A stretch of 63,873 bases of DNA, the filler included, from an uncultured bacterium (GTDB lineage Bacteria; UBA8481), in the NCBI GenBank assembly GCA_964499705.1. It is 3 parts of 3 records of this genome, joined end to end, with 100 filler letters (N's around TTAATTAATTAA, not from the genome) between each part and the next. Parts side by side here need not be neighbours in the genome. Positions count along the whole stretch, not along the records: positions 26,093 to 48,672 come from CAZCME010000032.1; 2 more parts are not named here. One strand, given 5' to 3'. This document shows, piece after piece, positions 11,561 to 48,772 of the stretch. Made by a program: the position numbers and the translations under genes. Position 1 is the stretch's first letter; every line of letters starts with the position of its first letter. The notes under the pieces are model-generated. The model did not search any database and had not been told where the DNA came from. It saw only the letters and a program-made list of their open reading frames with translations.

Positions 11561-12240
11561 CGAAGAACGGCGGCGGCGATCTGATCGACGACTTCGTCGA
11601 TGGAGAGCGGCGCCGTGTCGATGACGGTCGCATCTTCGGCGGGCTTGAGGGGCGCGACCGGCCGCTCGCGGTCATCCTTGTCGCGCTTGACGATATCGGC
11701 CAGCACCCACTCGAATTCCTTCCGGCGGCCCGCCGCGGCCAGCTCTTCCAGCCGGCGCTTCGCGCGCACTTCCGGAGCGGCATCGATGAAGAACTTCCAG
11801 CGGGCGTCGGGAAAAACGACGGTGCCGATATCCCGGCCCTCCATGACGATGCCGCCACGCGACGAGTCGCCGTCGCCGACGGTGTTGCGGGCCATGGAAC
11901 GCTGCAGATCAAGGAGCAGTTCCCGCACGCGAGGATACGAGGAGACGCGCGGGACATCGCGCGTTACGCGACCCGATCGGATCTCCACGGTCACGTCCGC
12001 TCCATCGAGAAATACTTTTCCCTCGCGCAGCTCGATCTTCGCATCCGCGGCGGCACCGGAAACGGAGGCCTCGTCGTCGATGGAGACTCCCTTATTGAGA
12101 GCCAGGAGCGTCACGGCGCGGAACATCGCGCCGGTGTCGATGTGGGTGAATCGCAAGCGTTCCGCGACGCGCCGCGCGACCGTGCTCTTGCCGCTGCCGG
12201 CGGGACCGTCGATCGCGACAACCCTGACATGCTCCTTCAT
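11554..12240 (-). CDS. cmk: cytidylate kinase
   Basis: AIDGPAGSGKST, DTGAMFR, EGRDIGTVVFPDA. Confidence 0.96.
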   Translation of the reverse strand: MKEHVRVVAIDGPAGSGKSTVARRVAERLRFTHIDTGAMFRAVTLLALNKGVSIDDEASVSGAAADAKIELREGKVFLDGADVTVEIRSGRVTRDVPRVSSYPRVRELLLDLQRSMARNTVGDGDSSRGGIVMEGRDIGTVVFPDARWKFFIDAAPEVRAKRRLEELAAAGRRKEFEWVLADIVKRDKDDRERPVAPLKPAEDATVIDTAPLSIDEVVDQIAAAVLRC

Positions 12241-12243
12241 CGT

Positions 12244-13536
12244 CTAGAACTCCGCGATTTCCGCGCCGAGAGAACACATAAGCCGGACAAAACCCGGAAA
12301 GGATGTCTCCACGCATTCGACATTCTCTACGACGACGCCGTCACGCGACAGGAGCCCGGCGACCGCGGCGGTCATCGCAATGCGGTGATCGCCCCGCGAC
12401 TGGACGCGACCGCCCCGGACGGATTGACGGCCGGGGATGATGAGACCGTCGGGAGTCGGCTTCGCGGTCAGACCGATGGAGGCGAATTCGCCGACAATCG
12501 CGTCGATCCTGTCCGTCTCCTTCACACGGAGTTCCGCGGCATCGCGCACGATGCTCTCGTCGGTATCCGCGAGCGCGGCGGCCAGGGACAGGACCGGAAT
12601 CTCGTCGATGAGGCGGGGAATATCGTCGCCCGCGATCGTCAGGGCTCCCCACTTCGCGCGAGCAACCTGAAGATCCGCGCGAGGTTCCCCGGATTCCACG
12701 CGGGGCGACCCGCATTCGAGCCGCGCGCCGGCCGAATTCATGACATCGAGAATTCCCGTGCGGAGCGGATTGACTCCGACATTCTCGATCGTCACATCCG
12801 CTTCGCGCGCCGCCATCGCGGCGACGAGAAAGAACGCGGCGGAAGAGATGTCTCCCGGCACATCGACCGGACGGCTGCGCAGAGTGGCGCCGCCTTCCAC
12901 GGCGACGATCCTGCCGGAATTTTCCTCCGTGACCGGACATCCGAAATGCCGGAGCATCCGCTCCGTATGGTCCCGGGAAGCCGCCGGCATCCGGACCGTC
13001 GTCCGGCCGGTCGCGGCGAGTCCGGCCAGGAGCAGCGCCGATTTCACCTGGGCGGACGCCACATCGATCGTGATGTCGCGCCCCTGCAGCCGGCGGCCCG
13101 AAACTTTCACCGGAGGCTTGTTCGCCGTCGTCTCGATCGAAGCTCCCATCGTCCTCAGATGCTTCGCCACGCGTTCCATCGGGCGCCGACGTAGGGATTC
13201 ATCGCCGTCGAGGATCACGTCAGGCGCACTTCCTCCATCCGGTCCTCGCCACGAGGATAGCGCTCCCATCATGAGCCGCATCGTCGTGCCTGAATTGCCG
13301 CAATCGCAGAGAATCGGGCCGGACTCATCCGCGTGCGATGCTCCGAGTGTCGCCCGGACGACCCGCCGAGTCGCGATGACATCCTCCGACTCGAGAAGCC
13401 CCGTGATGCCGGAACCTTCCCGGTTGCCGGCGAGCGCGTTCAGCATGATCGCGCGGTGTGAAATCGATTTGTCTCCGGGAACGCGGATCGTTCCACGCAG
13501 CGGCCCGTTCAGCGGCGAGACGCGCCATGACTTCAC
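12244..13536 (-). CDS. aroA: 3-phosphoshikimate 1-carboxyvinyltransferase (class II EPSPS)
   Basis: PGDKSISHR, GNSGTTMRL, ASAQVKS, RDHTERML, ELRVKETDRI, DHRIAM. Confidence 0.96.
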   Translation of the reverse strand: MKSWRVSPLNGPLRGTIRVPGDKSISHRAIMLNALAGNREGSGITGLLESEDVIATRRVVRATLGASHADESGPILCDCGNSGTTMRLMMGALSSWRGPDGGSAPDVILDGDESLRRRPMERVAKHLRTMGASIETTANKPPVKVSGRRLQGRDITIDVASAQVKSALLLAGLAATGRTTVRMPAASRDHTERMLRHFGCPVTEENSGRIVAVEGGATLRSRPVDVPGDISSAAFFLVAAMAAREADVTIENVGVNPLRTGILDVMNSAGARLECGSPRVESGEPRADLQVARAKWGALTIAGDDIPRLIDEIPVLSLAAALADTDESIVRDAAELRVKETDRIDAIVGEFASIGLTAKPTPDGLIIPGRQSVRGGRVQSRGDHRIAMTAAVAGLLSRDGVVVENVECVETSFPGFVRLMCSLGAEIAEF

Positions 13537-13591
13537 GCGAATGAGCCTCCGGCCAGTCCGTCAATTTTTGCCTTTCGATTTCCCATCGTCC

Positions 13592-14686
13592 TCAGCCCTT
13601 CATGCGGATCGTGTAGCCGGCGGAAGTCAAGGCGCGTGCCGCCCTGTCGCGGGCGTTCACGGTATCGAAGAGAAGGCGCAGTGGAGCCTCATCGTCGGAT
13701 CCTCGGACGTGCGCGATCTCGATATCGGCGATGTTGACGTCCTGCCGAGCCAGGACTCCGGTCACTTCCGCGATGGCTCCGGGCTTGTCGGCCAGTTCCA
13801 CGAAAAGGTCGATGATGGAGGGAAGAAGGCCGACGCCCTTCGGCGGAACGGCGTCACGCGATTTCTTGGCGGAGGTGAAGAAGGATTCGATGGCCTTCTC
13901 GTCATTCCGGTTCAACGCGATCCGGAATTCCGCGAGGCTCTTGTGCATCTCGTCGAGCGCGTCGAGGAGCGCCTTCCGGTTTGTGAGGCAGATATCCCGC
14001 CAAAGCCCGGGATTCGACGAGGCGATCCGCGTCGTATCGCGGAAGCCTCCGGCCGCGAGGTCCGTCGTCCGGCTGTCGCGTTTCGCGCGGGCGGCGACGG
14101 TGTTCACCAGTAGCGCCGCCGCCACATGCGGCATGTGGCTGATGGAAGCGACCACGCGATCGTGCGCATCCGCGGGCAGGACGACGGGTTGCGCTCCGAC
14201 CTGCCGCCAGAGTTCCTTCACGCGTTCCAGGGCTTCCTCGTCGGACGAAGTCGACGGCGTGACGATGACAACGGCCTGTTCGTAGAGGGCCGGATCGGCC
14301 GCGTCGATCCCATCCCGCTCCGATCCCGCCATCGGATGCGAACCGACGAAGCGCACGCCCTTCGGCAATCGCCGGGCCGCTTCCGCGATGATCCATTCCT
14401 TTGTCGAGCCGACATCCGTCACGATGGCGCCGGGCTTCAGGGATTGCGCGATCGCCGTCATCTGCTCGGGAATGGTTCTGACCGGCGCGCACAGGACGAC
14501 GATATCCGCGTCCCGGACGGCCTCCGCCGGATCCAGCGACCAGGAATCGATCGCGCCGCGTTCCTGCGCCCGCCTGAGCGTTTTCTCGGTACGGCCGAAC
14601 GCCGCGACGCGCGGAGGCGAAGGCAGCGCCTTCAACCGGAGACCGAGCGAGCCGCCCATCAGGCCGACCCCCCCGAGCGCGATCAT
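13592..14686 (-). CDS. tyrA: prephenate dehydrogenase with C-terminal ACT domain
   Basis: GVGLMGGS, TDVGSTK, HPMAGSE, SHMPH, GFRDTTRIA; C-terminal DKPGAIAEV. Confidence 0.93.
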   Translation of the reverse strand: MIALGGVGLMGGSLGLRLKALPSPPRVAAFGRTEKTLRRAQERGAIDSWSLDPAEAVRDADIVVLCAPVRTIPEQMTAIAQSLKPGAIVTDVGSTKEWIIAEAARRLPKGVRFVGSHPMAGSERDGIDAADPALYEQAVVIVTPSTSSDEEALERVKELWRQVGAQPVVLPADAHDRVVASISHMPHVAAALLVNTVAARAKRDSRTTDLAAGGFRDTTRIASSNPGLWRDICLTNRKALLDALDEMHKSLAEFRIALNRNDEKAIESFFTSAKKSRDAVPPKGVGLLPSIIDLFVELADKPGAIAEVTGVLARQDVNIADIEIAHVRGSDDEAPLRLLFDTVNARDRAARALTSAGYTIRMKG

Positions 14687-25992: not shown

Positions 25993-26092
25993 NNNNNNNN
26001 NNNNNNNNNNNNNNNNNNNNNNNNNNNNNNNNNNNNTTAATTAATTAANNNNNNNNNNNNNNNNNNNNNNNNNNNNNNNNNNNNNNNNNNNN
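25993..26092. other. artificial contig linker
   Basis: N-run enclosing TTAATTAATTAA (stop codons in all six frames). Confidence 0.97.
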
Positions 26093-26162
26093 TGGGGGAC
26101 TAGGATTCGAACCTAGATAAACGGAGTCAGAGTCCGTTGTCCTACCGTTGGACGATCCCCCA
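26093..26162 (-). tRNA. tRNA-Gln(CTG), 3' end cut by the contig end
   Basis: reverse complement TGGGGGATCGTCCAACGGTAGGACAACGGA-CTCTGAC-TCCGTTTATCTAGGTTCGAATCCTAGTCCCCCA forms a cloverleaf. Confidence 0.95.
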
Positions 26163-29308: not shown

Positions 29309-30154
29309 GTGCCCGCGCCCGCATCCGCCGTGCTCACGAGTTCCAGGACCGTGAAGGAGATCCTGACGCGCCATGGTTTCGTGGTTTCCAAAAGTCTCGG
29401 CCAGAATTTTCTCTGCGACGCGTCGGTTCTCCGGAGCATCGTCGATGCGGCCGAACCTGATGGCGAGGATGTCCTGGAAATCGGCCCCGGGCTCGGCGTC
29501 CTGACGGACGCGCTCGCCGCCCGAGCCGCGACCGTCACCGCCGTCGAAGCCGCGCGACGGCTCGAGCCGATTCTCCGGGAGACGCTCGCCCGTCATGCCA
29601 ACATCACGATCCGCTTCGCCGACTTCCTGCATGTTCCGTCGTCGGAATTGCCGGACAGGAAATTCGTCGTGGCGGCCAACCTGCCCTATTCCATCACGAC
29701 GCCCGTCCTCTTCCGGTTTCTCGACGGCGATATCGCGTGGAAGCGGATCGTGGTCACGATCCAGGCGGAAGTCGCGGAACGACTGGCGGCCCGGCCCTCG
29801 ACGCATGAATACGGCGCCCTGTCCGTCTCCGCGCAGGCGGCGGCCTCCGTGGAGATCATCCGCCGGATTCCGTCATCCTCCTTCTGGCCGCGCCCGAAAG
29901 TGGAATCTGCCATAGTCCGGTTAACGCCGCGACCGCGAGATAAGCCGTCCAACCTCCGCCTCGTTCTCCGCACCGCCTTCTCTTCGCGACGCAAGACGAT
30001 GCGCAATGCGGTCGCGCCGCTGCCGGGCGGATCCGAAGCGCTGAAGAAATCCGGCATCAGCGAGATAAGAAGGCCGGAAACCCTGAGCGTGGAAGAATGG
30101 ATCGACCTCGCCCGCCTGATGGCTCCCGCGCCCGACGTGGCACTCGGATCATGA
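29309..30154 (+). CDS. rsmA: 16S rRNA m6,2A dimethyltransferase
   Basis: KSLGQNFL, VLEIGPGLG.LT, ANLPYSITTP, F.PRPKVES. Confidence 0.95.
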   Translation: MPAPASAVLTSSRTVKEILTRHGFVVSKSLGQNFLCDASVLRSIVDAAEPDGEDVLEIGPGLGVLTDALAARAATVTAVEAARRLEPILRETLARHANITIRFADFLHVPSSELPDRKFVVAANLPYSITTPVLFRFLDGDIAWKRIVVTIQAEVAERLAARPSTHEYGALSVSAQAAASVEIIRRIPSSSFWPRPKVESAIVRLTPRPRDKPSNLRLVLRTAFSSRRKTMRNAVAPLPGGSEALKKSGISEIRRPETLSVEEWIDLARLMAPAPDVALGS

Positions 30155-30660
30155 TCGAAAAAAGCCTTCGGCTCCTCGATCCCCGGGCGCAAGCAGGAAC
30201 CATCGGGCATTGCTATTGCGCTTTCCGTTGCGCGGGCTGTCCCCATACCACGCATGCCGACGCGCTCCACCTTCGCATCGTGGGTTACGATGAGCAAGCT
30301 CTCAGCGTTCTGCAATCTTTCCACCCACGGGCGACTGAACTCGCCGCGGGTGAAATATCCGCGTCACAAGACACACTGGAGCAGATGAAAAAAGCCGGAT
30401 TGCAGCAGATCCTGATTCCCCTCTTCGGTACCGAATCCGTTCATGACGAAAGAGCGGACAGGCCAGGCGCCTATGCGGAAGTTTTCCAAACGATCAAGCG
30501 TGCGCAGGACGTCGGCTTGCGGACCCAGATCATTGTCCCCGCCGAGCTTCTCTCGCCGGAAGATCTCCGTTCGTTAACCCGTCATTGCTGGGCTCTGCAG
30601 ATTCAACTTACCCTCGTAAATTCCGGAGCCCCCCCTTGCTTTGCGTCGCGAATGGAATAA
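30151..30660 (+). CDS. miniature, divergent radical SAM-like protein (169 aa)
   Basis: ATGA overlap with rsmA; CAFRCAGC matches CxxxCxxC; GLQQILIPLFG.ESVHDERADRPGAY resembles the S.DG..E.HD..RG..GSF segment of radical SAM enzymes. Confidence 0.65.
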   Translation: MIEKSLRLLDPRAQAGTIGHCYCAFRCAGCPHTTHADALHLRIVGYDEQALSVLQSFHPRATELAAGEISASQDTLEQMKKAGLQQILIPLFGTESVHDERADRPGAYAEVFQTIKRAQDVGLRTQIIVPAELLSPEDLRSLTRHCWALQIQLTLVNSGAPPCFASRME

Positions 30661-30672
30661 AATCTTTCTCAC

Positions 30673-30876
30673 ATGAGTAATTCCATCCCTCACTTGGGCG
30701 CCAAAAAAGCAAAGTCCTACTCCAAGCCAGCGCTCGTTCGATATCGACCGGTCGAAACAAGCCCCATGGAATACACCATTTCATCCGGCACCCCGAACTC
30801 GGCAAAATGCGCCAATAATCCACCAGGCTGTCGGGGTCGAGGTCGCGGCATGATCGCTCCTCCTCCCTGGGGCTGA
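30673..30876 (+). CDS. candidate RiPP precursor peptide (67 aa)
   Basis: KKAKSYSKPALVRY matches the YxxPxL leader motif; Gly/Ser/Pro/Cys-rich C-terminus; TTGCTT-16-TAAAAT 9 nt upstream. Confidence 0.55.
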   Translation: MSNSIPHLGAKKAKSYSKPALVRYRPVETSPMEYTISSGTPNSAKCANNPPGCRGRGRGMIAPPPWG

Positions 30877-30907
30877 AACTCCCTTTCGATCACAACACTC
30901 GACTTTC

Positions 30908-31492
30908 ATGACCGCTTCCTGCCAGATCTCCTCGCTCTCGCTTCCCCATTGGGATGTTTATCTCCTCCACCGCCCAGCTCCGCAGGGTTCCCACCAGCTT
31001 CTGGAATGTCTGGAATTCCCCGACCGCAATCATATGATCTTCCTGGCAAGCTCGATCTCATCGGCGCAAGGCGCGCAATCCCTGGATTTTCTCAGGGGGC
31101 TGATCGCCAGCCTGGGCATGAAGGTCAAAGGGCTGGAAAGAATGCAGCAAGCATTACTTCAGCATCTGAGGAACTTGATTCCAGACGGCAACCTACCCGC
31201 AATACTCATCCTGGACATACCCGCCGGAGATTCCGATGTTTGCTGGTCGTCATCGGACCCTGGGCGCTTCATTCATGCACCATCCCGGCAGAATGTACCG
31301 CCCCCGCGTTCACCACTCACATTCCTTACCTCTGACGATCCCATGCTGATTCAGGAAATCAGACCATTACTGACGAACACGGAGACCAAATTTTCCATAG
31401 TGGATGCCATGGAAAGCATTAGAGATCTATTAGAATCATCCGGCAGGCTCTCCACATCCATTAGCCTGGTTCACCTGAACAGGACGAGATAA
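30908..31492 (+). CDS. hypothetical protein, degenerate SpoIIE/PP2C-like fold
   Basis: segment order WDVYLLHRPA / LLECLEFPD..MIFLASS / AILILD..VCWSSS / LTFLTSD / SISLVHL mirrors SpoIIE phosphatase domains, but most catalytic Asp residues are missing. Confidence 0.5.
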   Translation: MTASCQISSLSLPHWDVYLLHRPAPQGSHQLLECLEFPDRNHMIFLASSISSAQGAQSLDFLRGLIASLGMKVKGLERMQQALLQHLRNLIPDGNLPAILILDIPAGDSDVCWSSSDPGRFIHAPSRQNVPPPRSPLTFLTSDDPMLIQEIRPLLTNTETKFSIVDAMESIRDLLESSGRLSTSISLVHLNRTR

Positions 31493-31507
31493 GCGGGTAT
31501 AACCGCC

Positions 31508-31533
31508 TCACTCCGATATATTTATCGGAGTGA
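31508..31533. promoter_or_regulatory. palindromic operator candidate
   Basis: TCACTCCGATA-tatt-TATCGGAGTGA, about 20 nt upstream of a TTGACA box; no U-tract follows it on either strand. Confidence 0.5.
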
Positions 31534-31552
31534 AAAGAATTGAATTAAACTG

Positions 31553-31581
31553 TTGACAACTTTGCTGCTCTGACTTAGCTT
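31553..31581 (+). promoter_or_regulatory. sigma70-type promoter
   Basis: TTGACA-17 nt-TAGCTT. Confidence 0.65.
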
Positions 31582-31672
31582 CCCTTGGATCCGGGCCGAG
31601 TCGCCATGTGGCAAGTCGGCTCCATTTCGTGGCTCCCCACACTTGGTGGCAAGCCACTTTGAGGAGCAGGGT

Positions 31673-31918
31673 TTGACAGATCAGCAGCAGCAGCAACCGC
31701 GATGGGAAGAATACCTGACGAGTAAGGAAGCACAGGCTTACCTCAAGGTTTCGAGCGTTACGCTCTGGCGCCTGGTCAAAGAAGGTCAGCTTCCCGTCTA
31801 TAAAATCCATAATCGCAACCGGTACCGGAAGCATGATCTGGATGCCTTCATGGAATCGCATCGAGTCGGCCCCCCCTCCATCTTACCGCCATCCGGAGGC
31901 GATACCGGCAAACCCTGA
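31673..31918 (+). CDS. excisionase/BldC-like HTH_17 DNA-binding protein
   Basis: YLTSKEAQAYLKVSSVTLWRLVKEGQLP..KI..RNRYRKHDLDAF; GAGGAG RBS before TTG 31673. Confidence 0.88.
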   Translation: MTDQQQQQPRWEEYLTSKEAQAYLKVSSVTLWRLVKEGQLPVYKIHNRNRYRKHDLDAFMESHRVGPPSILPPSGGDTGKP

Positions 31919-31935: not shown

Positions 31936-32778
31936 ATGTTTAAGTGGTTATCACAAGCAAGAAGAGGGCGGCGTCCTAGATCAAACCGAGGTCGGAGCGT
32001 CTTGACCCGCTGGGCTCGACTCAGTCTCCAGGCAAGCGACATCCCAATCATCGCCGCGCTCCTCATTTCGGGAATTGCTCTCTGGTTTCTCGATCCTTCC
32101 TCAGCATTCAGTTCCTCCCCCGCCTGGGCGATGCCCGCGCGCTTCATCTCCACCGAGCTTGCTCTGCCCAATTTTCTGAAAGTCGTAGGGACGGAGGCGG
32201 GTTCAAGCCGAGTCTTGGATCTTGCCGAATTAGACGCGTCCGGAATTCAAGGCTGGGGAGGCAGATTACCCGAGCAGGATTTCGATCAATCGGACATATC
32301 CTGGCAAAGTTTACGTGATGAGACCGCGAATTTGCTCTATTCCTCAACCGCCGGCGGGCTCAATCCAGCGGCCGCATCCCCGCGCGAAAATCCGGATGCG
32401 AGCGGTAGCGGCCCCCGGATCACGTCGGGATTCGGATTCAGAAAGCTGGGCGGAGTGACCCGCCATCACGACGGCATCGACATCGCCATGACCTACGGAT
32501 CTCCGATCGCCGCGAAATGGGCTGGTGAAGTCGTCTATGCGGGATGGCATCACGGTTATGGTCTGGCCGTTTTATTGAATCACGGCCAGGGCAAGGAATC
32601 TCTTTATGCGCACGCCTCATCGCTGCGGGTTCAGGCCGGCGACATGGTCCAGGCCGGCGACGTCATCGGCTACGTGGGAACCACGGGACGTTCCTTCGGC
32701 CCTCACCTTCACTTCGAAGTCCGCTACGACAACATCGCGGTCGATCCCGAAGAGGAATTTCTCCGCTCGCCTCGCTGA
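31936..32778 (+). CDS. M23 family metallopeptidase, membrane-anchored
   Basis: ITSGFG.R, HDGID (HxxxD), YAH, GPHLHFEVR (HxH). Confidence 0.92.
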   Translation: MFKWLSQARRGRRPRSNRGRSVLTRWARLSLQASDIPIIAALLISGIALWFLDPSSAFSSSPAWAMPARFISTELALPNFLKVVGTEAGSSRVLDLAELDASGIQGWGGRLPEQDFDQSDISWQSLRDETANLLYSSTAGGLNPAAASPRENPDASGSGPRITSGFGFRKLGGVTRHHDGIDIAMTYGSPIAAKWAGEVVYAGWHHGYGLAVLLNHGQGKESLYAHASSLRVQAGDMVQAGDVIGYVGTTGRSFGPHLHFEVRYDNIAVDPEEEFLRSPR

Positions 32779-40883: not shown

Positions 40884-42796
40884 GCCCGATCCTGATATAC
40901 AAGCTCAAGTTCGTTCGCCTGCAGTCTTTCCCAGCGCATGGCTCCGGTCTCCGTCAGGGTGAGCGTTTCATAGGATTGAAGCCGTCTCCACTCCGCGTCG
41001 TTCACGAGAAGATGCGTAAATCCTCCGGACCGCAGGTAACGGATTCCCTTCTCTTCGTCATCGGGATCGTTGAGGTTCGCCACGAGCGGCTGGTTCGAAT
41101 AGACGGGAACGGCCTGGAACGGCCTCTCGATATAGTGCGCGCGCTGATCCCCGAGAACATGAATTCGCGCGTTGTCCGGCAGGTTTCCCGTGAATTTCGC
41201 CGCTTCGTGATAATCGAGCTTCCGCCCGAGATACGCGTCCGCGGGCTCCAGCGAGATCGCGGCCTCGAGCTTGCCGGATTGGCGCGTGATGAGCGCGAAG
41301 GAGTGGATATTCGAGAAGAAGAGAAGGAGGATGGGAAGAAAAACCATTCCTCGTCCTGCTCCATGAGCCGCCCGTGTCCACACGCAGAGGCCCCATGCGG
41401 ACAGTACCGCGAGAAGAGGAAAGGCGGGAACGAGAAACCGCGAGACAGGCTTTGTCATCACCCAGACCACGTAAAATCCGGCGAAGAGGAGAAAGAGCGG
41501 GCGGGACAGGCGATGGCGTATCGGTTGCAGGGGCCAGATGAGCAGCAGCGCGAGTGGAAGTCCCCATCCGAAATTTCCAAGGAGATCGAAGCCTCCTCCG
41601 AATTTCTCTTTCTCCAGCGCGAGCTCGATGGGAATGACCAGGATGGCGCGGAGATTGGTCCACGTGTCTCCGTATTCGGAAAGCATGCGCAGAAAGTACA
41701 GCGACGCCTCGCTTTTCAAAGCCGGGTCCGACATGGCGTCGCTGAAAAAGGGGAAGACGGGATTTCCGGTCATCCAGATGTTTCTGACAAACCAGGGCGC
41801 GGCGGCCAGGAAGGCTCCCAGCGAGAAACGAACCACGCGGCGGCGCGCCACCCATCCCACGGCAAGCAGGATGACCAGCGCGGCGCCTGTGTATTTGATA
41901 CCGAATGTGAATCCCGCAGACAAGCCGCACAGCCATTCGCTGCCGTATGACGTTTCATTCCGATCGAAAAGGCAAAACGCGAAGAGGGAGAGAAACGTGC
42001 AGCAGGCGAGAGGAATATCGACGTACGCGTCGGACGCCAGCAGGAGCCAGAACGGCGTCACGGAAACAAGCGCGGCGGCCGTCCAGCCGACTCCTTCATC
42101 CACGAAACGGCGCGCGAAGGCGATCACCGCGATGACGCTCAGGATGGACATCGTCCAGACGAGAAGACACGGCCCGCTCGCAGCGCCGGTTCCCATCAGC
42201 AGCAGAAAATTCATCTCCATCACCTGCGGGTAGGACGCGAAGACATTTCCGGGTACCGGGATCCAGCGACCTTCCTGCAGGAACATGTTCGGAAGTCCGC
42301 AATGGTACACGAGCGAATCGTAGTACACGGGCGGCATGAGCGCGGCGAGAAAAGTCAGAAAATGGGGGACGATGAGAAGGGGCGCCCAGGAAGGCGGGGC
42401 GAGCGGGATTCCGCCATTCATGCCTCGCTCCCTGAGAAACGCTGGCCACGCCGGCAGGAGGGCCAGGGCGAGAAAGGCGGTCAGGCAGGGGCGCGACCAG
42501 AGCCCCGCGATGCCCAGGATGAACACTTCGATGGAAATGAGACCGAGCCCGAGCGTGATGGAAAAGAGAGCCCGTTCCCATCGATCGAGCGTCACCCGCA
42601 GGCGCGCGACGAGGCACAGTCCCTGGCCCCACGAAGCGATCAGGAGCAGTGCGACCGCGATGACATTTCCTGCGCAGGACAGAAGCGCGCGAAGATTCCA
42701 TCGCGCCAAGAGCTCCGCCGCGGCATAGAAAAGCAGCGCTCCAAGAATCCAGGATCTCGCGGACGGCGAAAGCGAGAGGCCGCCTCGCGAATTCAA
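40859..42796 (-). CDS. polytopic membrane protein, GT-C-like
   Basis: YDSLVYH, YVDIPL, GIKYTG, WFVRNIWMTGNPVFP, RFLVP; TTG 42796 overlaps the hemH stop. Confidence 0.72.
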   Translation of the reverse strand: MNSRGGLSLSPSARSWILGALLFYAAAELLARWNLRALLSCAGNVIAVALLLIASWGQGLCLVARLRVTLDRWERALFSITLGLGLISIEVFILGIAGLWSRPCLTAFLALALLPAWPAFLRERGMNGGIPLAPPSWAPLLIVPHFLTFLAALMPPVYYDSLVYHCGLPNMFLQEGRWIPVPGNVFASYPQVMEMNFLLLMGTGAASGPCLLVWTMSILSVIAVIAFARRFVDEGVGWTAAALVSVTPFWLLLASDAYVDIPLACCTFLSLFAFCLFDRNETSYGSEWLCGLSAGFTFGIKYTGAALVILLAVGWVARRRVVRFSLGAFLAAAPWFVRNIWMTGNPVFPFFSDAMSDPALKSEASLYFLRMLSEYGDTWTNLRAILVIPIELALEKEKFGGGFDLLGNFGWGLPLALLLIWPLQPIRHRLSRPLFLLFAGFYVVWVMTKPVSRFLVPAFPLLAVLSAWGLCVWTRAAHGAGRGMVFLPILLLFFSNIHSFALITRQSGKLEAAISLEPADAYLGRKLDYHEAAKFTGNLPDNARIHVLGDQRAHYIERPFQAVPVYSNQPLVANLNDPDDEEKGIRYLRSGGFTHLLVNDAEWRRLQSYETLTLTETGAMRWERLQANELELVYQDRACRLWKLK

Positions 42797-43818
42797 ACCG
42801 TCGCGCCCGCGGATTTGCACCAATATTCGAGCGTGTCGATCCACCGCGGATGGTCGTTCAGGCAGGGAATCAGCTTCAGATCCTCACCGCCCGCCTCGAG
42901 AAAGGTTTCCCTCCCCCGCACCGCGATCTCCTCGAGCGTCTCGAGGCAGTCGGAGACGAATGACGGGCAGATGACGAGGATCTTCTTCACGCCTTCCTTC
43001 CCGAATCGTTCGAGCTCATGATCCGTGAAAGGAGTCAGCCACGGATCGCGGCCGAGCCGGGACTGGAACGCGACCGCGTACTTCTGCCTGGGAATTCCCG
43101 CCCTCTTCACAAACGCCCTCACGGTCTTGAAGGCCTGGGCGCGGTAGCAGGTATCATGAGCGATGCTCTTCGTCTCGCAGCAGTTTTCCACCTGCTGGCA
43201 ATGCGTATGCGTGGGATCGGCGAGCTTCAAGTGCCGGACAGGTAGGCCGTGAAAGCTGAAGAGCAGGAGGTCGTAATCCGTCTCCAGGAATTTCTTCGAC
43301 GCTTCAACCATCGCATCGATGTACATCGGATCCTCGTAGAACGGAGGATGAAGCGTGAGTTCCAGGTTCGGCGCCTGCGCTTTCAGCTCCTCGCGAACCT
43401 TGACGACGCAGGTCTCGTAGGACGACATCGCGTAATGCGGGTACAGCGGAACCAGATGGATGCGGGTGATGCCGGGCTTGGCGGCCAGGCGGGAAACGGC
43501 CTCGCGGATCGAAGGATTGCCGTACCGCATTCCCAGTTCCACCGGCGCCGCAATGCGCTCCTGCAGGAGCCTTCGAACGGTCCTGCTGGTGACGACGAGC
43601 GGCGAGCCGTCGGCCGTCCAGATGCTGGCGTACGCCTTGGCGGTCTCCTTCGGGCGAAACGGAAGAATCATTCCTTCCACGACGAAGAGCCGGACGGGAA
43701 ACGGACTGTCGATGACGCGCTCGTCCATGAGGAATTCCCGGAGGTATCGACGCACGTCGGGAACCTGGGTCGAGTCGGGCGATCCGAGATTGATCAGGAG
43801 CACCGCGCTACCGCCCAT
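42793..43818 (-). CDS. hemH: ferrochelatase
   Basis: LLINLGSP, MRYGNP, PLYPHY, FSFHGLP, FQSRLG..WL.P, FVSDCLETLEE. Confidence 0.95.
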   Translation of the reverse strand: MGGSAVLLINLGSPDSTQVPDVRRYLREFLMDERVIDSPFPVRLFVVEGMILPFRPKETAKAYASIWTADGSPLVVTSRTVRRLLQERIAAPVELGMRYGNPSIREAVSRLAAKPGITRIHLVPLYPHYAMSSYETCVVKVREELKAQAPNLELTLHPPFYEDPMYIDAMVEASKKFLETDYDLLLFSFHGLPVRHLKLADPTHTHCQQVENCCETKSIAHDTCYRAQAFKTVRAFVKRAGIPRQKYAVAFQSRLGRDPWLTPFTDHELERFGKEGVKKILVICPSFVSDCLETLEEIAVRGRETFLEAGGEDLKLIPCLNDHPRWIDTLEYWCKSAGATV

Positions 43819-45169
43819 GAATCGCCTCGCTCATCCTTCTCGCCGCCGTCCATCCGGACTCGATCGCATTCGGAAGCGAAATCCCGTCCCGCCACGTTCC
43901 CGCGAAAAGCAATCGCGGATTCGCCTCCTCGATCGCCGCGCACGCCGAAATAAAACTGCCGTGTCCCGTCTCCATCTGCGGAATGGCGCGATCGAACTGA
44001 AAGCTCTTTAGGTATACAGGCTCGCTTTTCACACCCAGCAGCTCCTTCAATTCCGCCATGAGAATCGGCAGCACGGCGTCCAGTCGATCCCTGCCCATGT
44101 CCGGTCGCCGCGATCCCCCGATGAAACTCGCCAGCGTCACGCAACCGTCCGGAGCTCTTCCCGGAAAAAGCGAGGACGTGAAGAGCGTGCCGAGGTGATT
44201 CAACTTTTCCGAGGACGGGATCAGATATCCGAAACCGTCCAGGGGATGCTCAATATCATTCCTCCGGAAACCAAGCGTCACCGTGCGAACCGGAGCGTAT
44301 GGAATTTCCGCCAGCATCGCAACATCGTTGGACCTCCCGGGCAGCCGGAATTCGCACGAACCAAGAGCGTGCGACGGCAGGCAGCAGATGACGCCGGAGG
44401 CTTCCAGGACGAACGGGCCGCCGCCGGATTGCCCATGCACCTTCCAACCACCCGCGCCGGATTCCACGGCCGCCACGCGGCAGGACGGATGAAAATCCGG
44501 TCCGAGCCGCGCGGCAAGATGCTCCGGAAGCGCTTTCATTCCGGAACGGAAGGAGACGATCCCGCGCGATCTTGTCTTCGGCTCCTTCACCTTCCTGATC
44601 ATCCCCATGAAGATCGAGCCATAGTCGCGCTCCATCCCGTGCACGCCCGGAAAAGCATGGCGCATGGAGAGGCGCTCCGGATCGCCGGCGTAAATTCCCG
44701 AGATGAAGGGATCGACCAGATAGGCGAGCGGCTCCTCGCCGATTCGTCGGCGGACGAAATCCGCGATAGTTTCATCAGGATTTCCCCGGGGCATGAACGG
44801 CTCTGCCAGGACGCGCATTTTAGCGGCCAGGGAGAGAACCGGTGATGTGAGAAGAGCTCCGGGGGAAGCCGGGAGCGCCAGCAGCTTGTGGTTCCGTACG
44901 ATGTAGCGCTTCTTCGCGGCATCCTGAGCTTCGATGAATTCCGAATTCTCCAGGCCGGCATCGCGGACCAATTCCCGCACGCGGGGCGTGGCGGCCATCA
45001 GGGAATTCGGGCCGGCCTCCGCGAGAAATCCATCCTCGATCGAGGTATCGATCACGCCGCCGGGCCGCGAAGACGATTCCAGGACGACGGATTCGAGATT
45101 CATCTTGTGCAGGTAGTGAGCGGCGGCCAGGCCCGTGATTCCTCCTCCCAGTACGGCAATCGGTTTCAT
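43808..45169 (-). CDS. hemY: protoporphyrinogen/coproporphyrinogen oxidase (HemY family)
   Basis: GGGITGL, EAGPNS, PFISGIYAGD, GFGYL, AIPQ; hem cluster context. Confidence 0.92.
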   Translation of the reverse strand: MKPIAVLGGGITGLAAAHYLHKMNLESVVLESSSRPGGVIDTSIEDGFLAEAGPNSLMAATPRVRELVRDAGLENSEFIEAQDAAKKRYIVRNHKLLALPASPGALLTSPVLSLAAKMRVLAEPFMPRGNPDETIADFVRRRIGEEPLAYLVDPFISGIYAGDPERLSMRHAFPGVHGMERDYGSIFMGMIRKVKEPKTRSRGIVSFRSGMKALPEHLAARLGPDFHPSCRVAAVESGAGGWKVHGQSGGGPFVLEASGVICCLPSHALGSCEFRLPGRSNDVAMLAEIPYAPVRTVTLGFRRNDIEHPLDGFGYLIPSSEKLNHLGTLFTSSLFPGRAPDGCVTLASFIGGSRRPDMGRDRLDAVLPILMAELKELLGVKSEPVYLKSFQFDRAIPQMETGHGSFISACAAIEEANPRLLFAGTWRDGISLPNAIESGWTAARRMSEAIHGR

Positions 45170-46539
45170 ACCGTCTTTGAAAAGCGGGCCTGCCCTTCCT
45201 TGTAATAGGCGTCAAAACGCATGGCGATGATGCGGATCAGGAGCCGGCCAAGCTGGGTAACGTCGATGCCGGAAGCGGAGCGAACGAGGAGACCGTCCTT
45301 CTCGAGATCCTCGAGGTTCTCGATTTCTCCGCGGAAATAATCCGCGAAATCGATCTTCGCCAGGCGCGACATTTCCGCGTAGTCGAGCGCCATGTCGCAC
45401 ATGAGCCTCTGAATCGTGACGCGCCTGATGCGATCGTCGTCGGTCAGGAGGCAGATCTTCGCCAACGGCCACTTGTTCCGGTCCAGGGCCGCGCCATAGT
45501 CGCCGATCTCCTTGAGGTTCTGCGCATACAGTTCCTCCGTCTGGGATATGGCCGACATGCCGTAAGCGTGGATATCCGCTCCGGAACGCGTGCTGTAGCC
45601 CTGGAAGTTCCTCTGCAGGGTTCCGGCCTTCTGAGCCGCCGCCAGCTCGTCATCCTGACGCGCGAAATGATCCATCCCGATATAGACATATCCAGACGAC
45701 GTCAGCTTCTCGATTGTCATCTTCAGAAGTTCGAGCTTCATCTCCGGTGACGGCAGGCTCTCATCCTTCAATATCTTCTGAGCCGGTTTCATCCACGGAA
45801 CATGCGCGTAGCTGAAGACAGCGAAGCGGTCGGGTGAAAGCGCGAGGATTTCGTCCAGCGTTTTTTCGAACGAGGCGACCGTCTGGTACGGTAGACCGTA
45901 GATAAGGTCGATGTTGAGGGACGAAAAACCCTCCTCGCGGATCCACTGGATGACTGTGGATGTCATCTCCAGGGGCTGGATCCTGTTCACGGCCTTCTGC
46001 ACTCTCGGGTCGTTGTCCTGCACTCCTATGGAAGCGCGGTTGAATCCGGATCGGGCCAGCGCCGCGACATGGTCGCGCGTCAGTTCCCGCGGATCCATCT
46101 CCACTCCCAGTTCCGCCTCAGGATCGAATCGGAACCGGCTTCGTATGATGTCGTTCAACCGCAGGATTTCATCGGGCGATAGAAACGTGGGTGTGCCGCC
46201 GCCGTAATGCATCTGCACGACCGGACGGTCCGGATGGACGAGCGGCGCGCGCAGCTCGATCTCCTGCTGCAAACGATCCAGGTATGGAGTGGTCACCGCG
46301 TGATTTCTGGTGATGACGGTCGTGCAGCCGCAGAACCAGCAGAGCGTGTCGCAGAAGGGCAGGTGAAAATAGAGGGAGAGCGGCCGGTCCGGTTGATTGG
46401 AGAGCTGCATGGCCTTCCAGGCTTCATCGCTGTCGGCGGCATCGCGGAACTGCGGCGCTGTCGGATACGAGGTGTAGCGCGGACCGGGCTTGTTGTATTT
46501 GCGGATGAGATCGAGATCGACGATGAGCGGACTGGTCAT
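45166..46539 (-). CDS. hemN: oxygen-independent coproporphyrinogen III oxidase
   Basis: GPRYTSYPTA, HLPFCDTLCWFCGC, GGGTP, IGMDHF, RNFQGYS. Confidence 0.96.
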   Translation of the reverse strand: MTSPLIVDLDLIRKYNKPGPRYTSYPTAPQFRDAADSDEAWKAMQLSNQPDRPLSLYFHLPFCDTLCWFCGCTTVITRNHAVTTPYLDRLQQEIELRAPLVHPDRPVVQMHYGGGTPTFLSPDEILRLNDIIRSRFRFDPEAELGVEMDPRELTRDHVAALARSGFNRASIGVQDNDPRVQKAVNRIQPLEMTSTVIQWIREEGFSSLNIDLIYGLPYQTVASFEKTLDEILALSPDRFAVFSYAHVPWMKPAQKILKDESLPSPEMKLELLKMTIEKLTSSGYVYIGMDHFARQDDELAAAQKAGTLQRNFQGYSTRSGADIHAYGMSAISQTEELYAQNLKEIGDYGAALDRNKWPLAKICLLTDDDRIRRVTIQRLMCDMALDYAEMSRLAKIDFADYFRGEIENLEDLEKDGLLVRSASGIDVTQLGRLLIRIIAMRFDAYYKEGQARFSKTV

Positions 46540-47609
46540 GACTTTCCGCCCGGGCGCGCGCGGTGGCTCCGGACGGTCTCCACGAGCGCCTCGATATTTT
46601 CCAGCTTCGCGTCGGGCGGCACGCCGTGCCCGAGGTTGAAGATGTGACCGGGCCGGCCCTTCATCTCGTCGATGATCCTCCGCGTGCTCCGCGCGACCGT
46701 CTCCGGGGTCGTGCGCAACAGAGCCGGATCGAGATTCCCCTGCAGCGCCATGCCGCTGGGGATGCATGAAGCGGCTTCCGACAAGGAATACGACCAGTCG
46801 ATGGAGAGGGCATCCGCGCCCGTTGCCGCGAGATCATTCCAGATCCCGTGCACGCCTCGGGCAAACACGATCACGGGAATTTTCCCATCGAGCGCCCGGA
46901 TGATGCGCTCGATCCATCGCCCAGATGCATCCCAGTAATCCTGCTGCGCCAGCATTCCTCCGAAACTGTCGAAGATCTGGATCGCATCGACGCCCGCGCG
47001 GATCTGGAGCTTGAAATACTCGATGAGGGCGCGCGTCAGGATCGCCATGAGCCGGTCGAACGATTTCCGGTCCTCGAAGAACCATTCTTTCAGATGAGCG
47101 AATTCTCCGGAGGAACCGCCTTCCGCCATGTAGTTTCCGAGGGTCCAAGGCGAACCTCCGAAACCGAGGAGGGCTGTCTCAGGAATCGCCGTGCGCAGCA
47201 GGCGCAGGGCGTCATATTCGTAGGCCAGCCGTTCGGCGATCCCTTTCGTCCGGAGACGATCGATGTCCCGGCTGCGGCGGATGCTGAACGAGAGCGAAAT
47301 CCCCTTGCCTTCGACGAAGCGGTACGACTGGCCGAGAGCTTCGGGCACGACGAGAATATCGCTGAAGAGAATCGCCGCGTCGAAACCGAAGCGACGAACC
47401 GGTTGGAGCGTGACTTCGGCAGCCAGGTCCGGATCGCGAACCAGCTCGAGAAAGGAATATTTTTTCCGGAGCCGGCGATACTCCGGCAGCGACCGGCCGG
47501 CCTGGCGCATCAGCCAGACGGGCGCACGATCCGTGCGTTCGCATCGGCAGGCGCACAGGAATCGTTCCCGCGCCGTAATGGTCTTTCTGTCAGGAGATTT
47601 CTTCACCAT
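46536..47609 (-). CDS. hemE: uroporphyrinogen decarboxylase
   Basis: PVWLMRQAGRSLPEY, AILFSDIL, QGNLDP, FNLGHG. Confidence 0.96.
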   Translation of the reverse strand: MVKKSPDRKTITARERFLCACRCERTDRAPVWLMRQAGRSLPEYRRLRKKYSFLELVRDPDLAAEVTLQPVRRFGFDAAILFSDILVVPEALGQSYRFVEGKGISLSFSIRRSRDIDRLRTKGIAERLAYEYDALRLLRTAIPETALLGFGGSPWTLGNYMAEGGSSGEFAHLKEWFFEDRKSFDRLMAILTRALIEYFKLQIRAGVDAIQIFDSFGGMLAQQDYWDASGRWIERIIRALDGKIPVIVFARGVHGIWNDLAATGADALSIDWSYSLSEAASCIPSGMALQGNLDPALLRTTPETVARSTRRIIDEMKGRPGHIFNLGHGVPPDAKLENIEALVETVRSHRARPGGKS

Positions 47610-48672: not shown

Positions 48673-48772
48673 NNNNNNNNNNNNNNNNNNNNNNNNNNNN
48701 NNNNNNNNNNNNNNNNTTAATTAATTAANNNNNNNNNNNNNNNNNNNNNNNNNNNNNNNNNNNNNNNNNNNN
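48673..48772. other. artificial contig linker
   Basis: N-run enclosing TTAATTAATTAA. Confidence 0.97.

Follow-up and report, generated by a model that had tools for sequence, protein, structure and literature searches.

The stretch of DNA analyzed in this work (the window) is 63,873 nucleotides (nt) long, filler included, and belongs to the genome assembly GCA_964499705.1 of an uncultured bacterium of the lineage UBA8481. It consisted of three contigs, with C31 as the first and C32 as the middle one, joined by N spacers at 25993-26092 and 48673-48772 (at each joint two runs of N that enclose a few letters), and features should not be read across these joints. The element of interest, a cassette of three short genes directly downstream of rsmA, was located entirely on C32 (26093-48672). 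An earlier note on this DNA had described three co-oriented open reading frames (ORFs) at this place, encoding a 169-amino-acid (aa) protein with a CxxxCxxC motif, a 67-aa peptide 12 nt downstream of it and a third, longer product. It had proposed a mini radical S-adenosylmethionine (SAM) protein, a precursor-like peptide with a YxxPxL leader as in peptides that are made on ribosomes and modified after translation (RiPPs), and a degenerate phosphatase. All three ORFs were recovered on the + strand, and the genes of the cassette and its immediate neighbors were as follows.

29309..30154, + strand: rsmA, 16S rRNA dimethyltransferase (TIGR00755, 238 bits, cut-off 171)
30151..30660, + strand: mini radical-SAM-core protein, 169 aa (ORF call, family alignment, AlphaFold2 (AF2) fold)
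30673..30876, + strand: type-A precursor-like peptide, 67 aa (alignments, codon test, 5/5 genomes)
30908..31492, + strand: ORF3, PP2C/SpoIIE-fold protein, 194 aa, probably a pseudo-phosphatase (structural matches)
31643..31918, + strand: HTH_17 (excisionase/MerR-type) helix-turn-helix (HTH) DNA-binding protein (PF12728, E 8.8e-15)
31936..32778, + strand: M23 metallopeptidase, the gene after the HTH gene (PF01551, 113 bits)

The comparison was based on all five species genomes of one small Hydrogenedentes-labelled phylum in the genome collection, namely G000 (the genome of the window), G001-G003 (three other genera of the same family) and G004 (another family of the same order, 94% complete). 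One of the four family genomes had a G+C content of 40%, the others of about 60-65%. From its earliest ATG the first ORF of the cassette would span 30097-30660. The start of the mini radical SAM protein was placed at 30151, hence a length of 169 aa, because all family members in the alignment begin at the position of this ATG and an ATGA overlap is formed with the rsmA stop codon. An overlap of this kind (ATGA or GTGA) was present in 4/4 family genomes. The stop codon of the mini radical SAM gene was followed by the peptide gene after 6, 9 or 12 nt (12 nt in the window) or with an ATGA overlap across the same genomes. Most likely, the cassette is translationally coupled to rsmA and forms an operon that is read through from it. 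The start of the HTH_17 gene was uncertain, its conserved part beginning near 31694.

The order pdxA-rsmA-mini radical SAM-peptide-ORF3-HTH_17 was kept in 4/4 genera of the family, and in G001-G003 the mini radical SAM protein measured 175-191 aa, the peptide 63-67 aa and ORF3 about 218-237 aa. When the mini radical SAM protein was searched against 41 genomes, matches with E <= 0.01 were obtained in 12, and only those in G001-G003 were full-length (29-35% identity); the remaining matches were short stretches within radical SAM ORFs of 250-550 aa. Mean pairwise identity among the four genera was 72.8% for the HTH protein, 62.5% for the peptide, 53.8% for RsmA, 32.3% for the mini radical SAM protein and 29.8% for ORF3. 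For the peptide, 28 conserved codons were compared, and each genome pair showed 14-22 differences at the third position versus 2-7 at positions 1 or 2, with 10-20 synonymous versus 2-6 non-synonymous changes. This third-position bias, which was also found between the 40% and the ~60-65% G+C genomes, indicated strong coding selection on the peptide.

The cassette had also been described as AT-rich inserted DNA. Its G+C content was indeed lower, though modestly (mini radical SAM 0.573, peptide 0.564 and ORF3 0.535, versus rsmA 0.652 and pdxA 0.646), and ORF3 and the HTH gene were below their flanks in two other high-G+C relatives as well. The word inserted was not borne out, as the genes occupied the same place after rsmA in 4/4 genera. 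Orthologues of the HTH protein with 68-79% identity were detected in 4/4 other genomes of the phylum, always at this locus, and outside the phylum only generic matches of 32-46% were obtained. A recent mobile insertion, which the excisionase-type HTH protein and the lower G+C content had suggested, was ruled out by the conserved synteny and by the phylum-wide single-copy HTH gene. The locus is old and appears to be a lineage-specific operon.

The peptide of the window (type A) was composed of a leader, Y16-x-x-P19-x-L21-x-R23-Y24, and a core, C46...C53-R-G-R-G-R...P-P-P-W66-G67. The YxxPxL motif (Y16-P19-L21), whose conservation the earlier note had made a point to check, was invariant in 9/9 type-A sequences covering it, including 5/5 type-A rows of the peptide alignment. 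A profile built from the peptide detected two peptide genes in each of the 5/5 phylum genomes, the second being a paralogue on another contig (type B). In the alignment of both types R23, Y24, Y34, C46, C53, G55, P64 and W66 were invariant and P19, L21 and P65 nearly so, and the common pattern was a [Y/W]xxPxLxRY leader, a core with two Cys and a PPW C-terminus. Type A was basic (GRGRGRG) and ended in PPPWG, and type B was neutral or acidic and ended in PPWLxP or similar. Against 5.8 billion proteins the joint profile retrieved 13 clusters only (type A, 4; type B, 9); with the window peptide alone as query, a single match was returned from the same set. No Pfam or NCBIfam match was found for the peptides of either type. 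In a metagenome scan with the peptide profile, which gave at least 599 pattern matches, the lone tblastn match came from high-G+C DNA, where it ran antisense to a secD/F-like gene, and was rejected.

The assignment of the first protein to the radical SAM fold held in sequence and structure comparisons. Its family alignment contained 14 rows, two of them truncated at the N-terminus, and the CxxxCxxC motif (C23/C27/C30) was present in all 12 rows covering this part; C163 near the C-terminus was a fourth invariant Cys. A profile search of 1.84 billion representatives recovered 13 relatives with lengths of 120-192 aa and E values from 4e-78 to 8e-17; a clear gap set them off from the next matches, which covered only parts of larger radical SAM proteins. 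The Pfam model Radical_SAM (PF04055) matched 9/14 family members at E <= 0.01 (best 8.7e-8), and no Pfam or NCBIfam match of the family was above cut-off. The AF2 model reached a pLDDT of 84.4 and a pTM of 0.78, its best Foldseek matches were BlsE, BioB, SkfB and MoaA (E 8e-5 to 8e-4), and all of the top 50 rows of VIA-align were radical SAM enzymes (Z 9.2-10.9, 122-160 aligned residues). The structural matches included viperin, BlsE, a pyruvate formate-lyase (PFL) activase domain, SkfB, MoaA, NifB, SuiB and PqqE, of which SkfB, SuiB and PqqE are peptide maturases. By hhalign, residues 61-147 resembled residues 95-181 of the maturase encoded beside the type-B peptide (probability 95.3%, E 2e-8). 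The 14 NCBIfam matches at E <= 1 were all of SPASM-class or MoaA/HpnH-type, those of SPASM-class spanning only model positions 82-178 of 412. A SPASM/twitch domain was absent; only 13 residues follow the final core strand, and C163 is the single conserved Cys of this end. Neither the family scans nor the AF2 model gave a recognizable RiPP recognition element (RRE) or peptide-binding domain. The mini protein thus consists of a radical SAM core alone, without SPASM or RRE. A complex prediction of the mini radical SAM protein with the peptide scored 0.00 in two runs made without controls and carries no weight in either direction.

ORF3 was placed by structure. Its Atlas model (pTM 0.75) gave TM values of 0.71-0.79 to 10/10 SpoIIE clusters, and its AF2 model (pLDDT 75.5) matched 50 PP2C entries in VIA with Z 14.0-10.0. 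The best of them was the PP2C-like C-terminal domain of P. aeruginosa RssB (chain 3f79_A, Z 14.0, root-mean-square deviation 3.1 Å over 173 residues), with which ORF3 shares the PP2C fold; the two differ in that identity is 13% and ORF3 has no receiver domain. In the sequence scans no Pfam or NCBIfam family matched ORF3, PF07228 was not reached by the window protein, and one of the four ORF3 relatives scanned gave a weak SpoIIE (PF07228) match (E 0.025, 15 bits versus a cut-off of 25). A profile search retrieved the protein itself and one 228-aa protein, presumably the ORF3 of a relative, and nothing relevant among PDB sequences. PP2C phosphatases carry a set of metal-binding aspartates. Among the four family orthologues of ORF3, E33 and E36 were the only invariant acidic residues and no Asp was invariant. 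The label of degenerate phosphatase is a fair one, because a PP2C fold was found with neither a Pfam match nor an invariant Asp. The part of it concerning the fold is supported, and the part concerning lost activity is deduced from these features; ORF3 is probably a PP2C-fold pseudo-phosphatase.

Outside the family the composition of the locus changed. In G004 the type-A peptide, a 255-aa gene at the position of ORF3, the HTH gene and the M23 peptidase gene (123 bits) followed in the same order, not beside rsmA. The 255-aa gene was equated with ORF3 only because of where it lies, its size and a small number of residues in common, and hhalign of its product against the family ORF3 alignment returned a probability of 4.6%, that is, no significant similarity. 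The co-location of the peptide with the CxxxCxxC protein, likewise raised earlier as a check, was found in 4/5 phylum genomes, G004 being the exception, and the peptide itself was conserved in all of them. As G004 keeps the peptide, the ORF3-position gene and the HTH gene without a mini radical SAM gene, these three constitute the phylum-wide core. By this distribution, the mini radical SAM gene was added within one family, as was the coupling to rsmA.

The type-B peptide was found in a cluster of its own. The G000 cluster was located on contig C4 at about 60650-64500 (L027 4649-8499) and contained the following genes in addition to the peptide.

C4, beside the type-B peptide: radical SAM/SPASM enzyme, 353 aa (Radical_SAM 64.1 bits, SPASM 43.4 bits)
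C4, type-B cluster: PqqD, 98 aa (64.1 bits)
C4, type-B cluster: protein arginine methyltransferase (PRMT)-like methyltransferase, 308 aa (PRMT_C 40.5 bits, cut-off 27)
C4, divergently transcribed: lasso-B2 transglutaminase-like peptidase (lasso_biosyn_B2 52.7 bits, cut-off 33)
C4, divergently transcribed: HprK-like protein (family match)

PqqD was encoded 1.1-1.3 kb from the type-B peptide in 5/5 genomes, and in G000, G001 and G004 the radical SAM/SPASM gene stood between the two. The lasso-B2 peptidase gene of G000 was about 2-3 kb from the peptide. At the type-B locus of G001, PqqD, radical SAM, peptide and methyltransferase genes were found, and the ORFs of G004 (146, 321, 313, 75, 362 and 110 aa) matched those of G000 in size, order and orientation, this placement being by position only. 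A methyltransferase followed the type-B peptide in four genomes (PRMT-like in G000), and the lasso-B2-type peptidase and the HprK-like protein were present at the type-B locus of two genomes (G000, and G004 by position only). For a bacterium, a PRMT-type enzyme encoded next to a precursor peptide is already an unusual feature. No PqqD match was obtained on C32 or on the type-A contigs of G001-G004. The earlier note had asked for an RRE-containing protein in the genome, and two PqqD proteins of G000 were above the Pfam cut-off. The second one (84 aa, 42.8 bits) was on C8 at about 11967-13700 (L014 1447-3190), where the neighboring large ORF resembled an ATP-grasp protein and the next ORF a pyridoxal-phosphate-dependent decarboxylase in translations read by eye; from its gene content, this locus may be a further peptide-modification system. 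The Asn-synthase family (PF00733) gave 8 matches in G000, none of them on C32 or C4. Six full-length paralogues of this family were found on C2, C9, C13 and C30, none near either peptide locus.

Three types of known peptide systems were compared with the two loci. PqqA/PqqD/PqqE and MftA/MftB/MftC are peptide-derived cofactor systems. The likeness to pyrroloquinoline quinone (PQQ) and mycofactocin lay in the radical SAM enzyme, the PqqD-type chaperone and a short precursor with high conservation right to the C-terminal end, and PqqE was also a structural match of the mini enzyme (Z 9.7); the type-B maturase matched the PqqE and mycofactocin maturase models partially and far below the equivalog cut-offs, and the peptide sequence was unrelated. 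The C4 maturase, PqqD and other products were in fact below every equivalog cut-off tried, including those of SynChlorMet, PqqE and mycofactocin models. To the RiPP clusters with a discrete RRE and a radical SAM/SPASM enzyme (sactipeptide- or ranthipeptide-like, and Haft's SynChlorMet), the type-B cluster was similar in its PqqD, radical SAM/SPASM enzyme, HprK-like protein and short precursor, its partial SynChlorMet matches being far under the cut-offs (ScmC 25.1 versus 125, ScmD 20.4 versus 100 and ScmE 110.9 versus 400 bits). Unlike these clusters, the window locus had neither RRE nor SPASM, and its enzyme measured 169 aa. With paeninodin-type lasso clusters (A, B1, B2, C and an HprK-like kinase) the shared features were a [Y/W]xxPxL leader, a discrete PqqD/B1-like protein, a B2 peptidase and an HprK-like protein. 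Unlike in those clusters, a radical SAM enzyme was found instead of a lasso cyclase, which neither locus contained, and PqqD scored 47.2 bits against the lasso_PqqD_Bac cut-off of 80.

Small radical SAM enzymes offered a further comparison. Radical SAM activases of the NrdG/PflA type are about 150-250 aa long. The mini enzyme is likewise small and without accessory domains, and the PFL-activase domain (3can) tied with its best structural matches (Z 10.7). Unlike for these activases, no activase family was among the 14 NCBIfam matches and no glycyl-radical enzyme was encoded nearby.

RRE-Finder reports about 300 cases in which a lasso-like RRE, present as a discrete protein, accompanies a radical SAM enzyme (PMC7470986), and the type-B locus is of this known kind. 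Four features set the window locus apart: its core-only 169-aa enzyme, the lack of an RRE, a PP2C pseudoenzyme and a housekeeping operon to which it is fused. No description of this peptide/mini-enzyme locus was found in full-text searches of open-access papers and bioRxiv, in line with the earlier view of an undescribed cassette. According to PMC13381572, [Y/W]xxPx[L/V/I/F/A] is the leader motif bound by discrete lasso RREs, and Popov et al. 2026 report that Y versus W lets co-resident RREs reject each other's precursors. The same paper describes for LPP and paeninodin two precursor families that share a Y/WxxP leader motif in one genome, and thereby the same question of cross-talk and discrimination (PMC13381572). 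There, every family is served by an RRE of its own; here, an RRE is encoded near type B only, and the type-A locus has none.

The wider surroundings of the cassette were mostly housekeeping in character. A NuoB-like gene, surA, pdxA and rsmA were located upstream, and HTH_17, M23 peptidase, FapA, priA and sugar-modifying genes downstream, with a group of heme genes further on. The intergenic region before the HTH gene (31493-31642, 150 nt) had the lowest G+C content of the locus (0.507) and contained a TTGACA hexamer; no promoter was called in it by the consensus scan. A 117-aa ORF at 31508-31861 on the - strand, antisense to the HTH gene, had no family assignment and most likely does not represent a gene. 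Rfam, the promoter/terminator scan and PADLOC gave no further result except a generic HTH match. A tRNA gene cut at the contig edge was located at 26093-26162 on the - strand (Rfam RF00005, 59.2 bits). The heme-type genes (42796-46767, - strand), unrelated to the cassette, encoded a HemN-like radical SAM enzyme of 533 aa, an amine-oxidase-family flavoprotein, which may be a protoporphyrinogen oxidase, and a ferrochelatase; the HemN-like gene was the sole full-size radical SAM gene within the window. The sequencing runs listed with the locus were six from two studies, all of DNA, with no RNA run among them; two of the six may derive from the source sample itself.

Taken together, a split RiPP-type pathway, in which the type-A operon would be a satellite that depends in trans on the type-B cluster, was tentatively favored by us, with less than even confidence. 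It was preferred because an RRE-type leader is kept without a local RRE, a PqqD cluster co-occurs, and a coupled radical SAM core adjoins the peptide. The earlier note had offered a satellite precursor served in trans as one option, and the type-B paralogue with its PqqD, SPASM, lasso-B2 and HprK-like genes on another contig gave substance to it; the Y and W leaders discussed below spoke against it in two genomes. The proposed mechanism, each biochemical step of which is deduced from gene content, conservation, folds, paralogy and co-occurrence, would be as follows. The type-A peptide would be made as leader and core, its [Y]xxPxLxRY leader would be bound by the lasso-type PqqD from the type-B cluster, and the leader would be removed by the B2-type peptidase of that cluster. 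The invariant core with its two Cys, RG repeat and PPPWG end would be modified by the adjacent 169-aa radical-SAM-core enzyme, and regulation would probably fall to the PP2C-fold pseudoenzyme and the highly conserved HTH protein, through binding or sensing of the peptide or of what is made from it.

A number of observations weigh against this mechanism. In G001 and G003 the type-A leader carries YxxP versus WxxP in type B (G000 has Y in both), which speaks against a common RRE for the two types in G001 and G003. No mini radical SAM gene was found in G004, therefore the enzyme is not obligatory for the peptide, and no exporter was seen. The peptide was more conserved than the mini enzyme and RsmA. 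A core more conserved than the enzyme seems, by comparison, unlike most RiPP cores and unlike typical antimicrobial RiPPs, and its conservation hints at a cellular rather than an antibiotic role. As to the enzyme, the window protein was below the Pfam cut-off of PF04055 (24.1 versus 29.5 bits), and its segment from the Cys motif to the following conserved strand was about 26 residues shorter than that of the type-B maturase. Radical SAM enzymes hold SAM by an aromatic residue before the third Cys, a GGE motif and a ribose motif. In the mini protein Gly or Ser precedes the third Cys in place of the aromatic residue, PLFG, which is atypical, stands where SkfB has SIDG, and the fourth invariant Cys could fill the SAM site. 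With these atypical motifs and C163, the mini protein may bind a cluster without cleaving SAM. In addition, the type-B maturase did not score clearly above other SPASM-class enzymes with the mini-enzyme profile, and a duplication of the maturase gene is unsupported as the origin of the mini enzyme because the profile does not single it out.

Several of these observations are shared by another explanation, which we consider possible but on the doubtful side, that the peptide is a domesticated small protein. It would remain unmodified inside the cell as a basic RG-rich peptide, accompanied by two pseudoenzymes (a radical-SAM-derived Fe-S protein and the PP2C pseudo-phosphatase) and the HTH protein, and its function could be regulatory or, given the coupling to rsmA, concern ribosomes or RNA. 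Such a role would be consistent with the conservation of the whole peptide, core included, beyond that of RsmA, with the housekeeping surroundings (surA, pdxA, rsmA and priA) and with the translational coupling to rsmA in 4/4 genomes. The peptide, the ORF3-position gene and the HTH gene persisted in G004 without the mini radical SAM gene, the HTH protein was 68-79% identical across the phylum and present only at this locus, and both the unusual SAM motifs with the fourth invariant Cys and the missing Pfam PP2C match of ORF3 fit with pseudoenzymes. However, the invariant RRE-type leader of type A would be purposeless in an unmodified protein, and the cluster cysteines of the mini enzyme were kept in 12/12 rows at an overall identity of only ~32%. 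The co-occurrence of both paralogues with the PqqD cluster in 5/5 genomes is not expected of such a protein either, and the G004 locus does not adjoin rsmA.

An unlikely alternative is a self-contained minimal RiPP system, in which the mini radical SAM protein would modify the adjacent peptide without an RRE or help from the type-B cluster, with ORF3 or the M23 peptidase providing binding or cleavage. The close spacing of the mini enzyme and peptide genes (6-12 nt or an ATGA overlap) agrees with it, the Y and W leaders of G001 and G003 suggest that the two pathways are kept apart, and an M23 peptidase gene lies downstream in G000 and G004. But the mini enzyme contains no recognizable peptide-binding domain and is missing from G004, and its peptide-modifying radical SAM structural matches were all of 312-498 residues with extra domains.

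By analogy with PQQ and mycofactocin, a more far-reaching proposal, which we consider improbable, would have both peptides give rise not to an antibiotic but to a cofactor or signal that is derived from a peptide and stays inside the cell. In that case no smaller radical SAM enzyme that modifies peptides would be known than the 169-aa protein, a bare core lacking recognition domain and auxiliary cluster. Its target would be the C-terminus, with its invariant Cys and Trp, of a peptide more conserved than RsmA. Readout of the product would be the task of the PP2C pseudoenzyme and the phylum-specific HTH protein, and the PRMT-like enzyme of the sister cluster may methylate GRGRGRG in trans.

Two further explanations carried very little weight. 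A lasso peptide precursor, to which the YxxPxL-type leader and the lasso-type PqqD and B2 peptidase in the genome would point, is hardly credible: neither peptide locus is a lasso cluster because 0/8 Asn-synthase-family matches were on the contig of either locus, and the radical SAM/SPASM enzyme occupies the place of the cyclase in the type-B cluster. Chance ORFs, or the decay of a single larger radical SAM/SPASM gene, as the length of the region (1342 nt, about that of one SPASM maturase gene) and the restriction of the first ORF to positions 82-178 of 412 in SPASM-class models might suggest, were refuted by the synteny of three separately conserved ORFs with intact frames and similar lengths in four genera, by the 13 mini-enzyme family members of 120-192 aa and by the codon test of the peptide, in addition to the confident folds of both larger proteins, and there is next to no chance that they explain the locus.

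Both families are rare: 5.8 billion proteins yielded 13 clusters of the peptide, and 1.84 billion representatives yielded 13 of the enzyme. Under the split pathway that we tentatively prefer, the pair of loci would be a natural case of a divided RiPP pathway, one part being a full cluster and the other a satellite operon that is fused to a housekeeping gene, and genome-mining tools which require an adjacent RRE would miss such split loci. If the mini protein is active, the minimum size of radical SAM enzymes that modify peptides would be lower than so far known, and the domains for recognition and auxiliary clusters would be either dispensable or supplied in trans.

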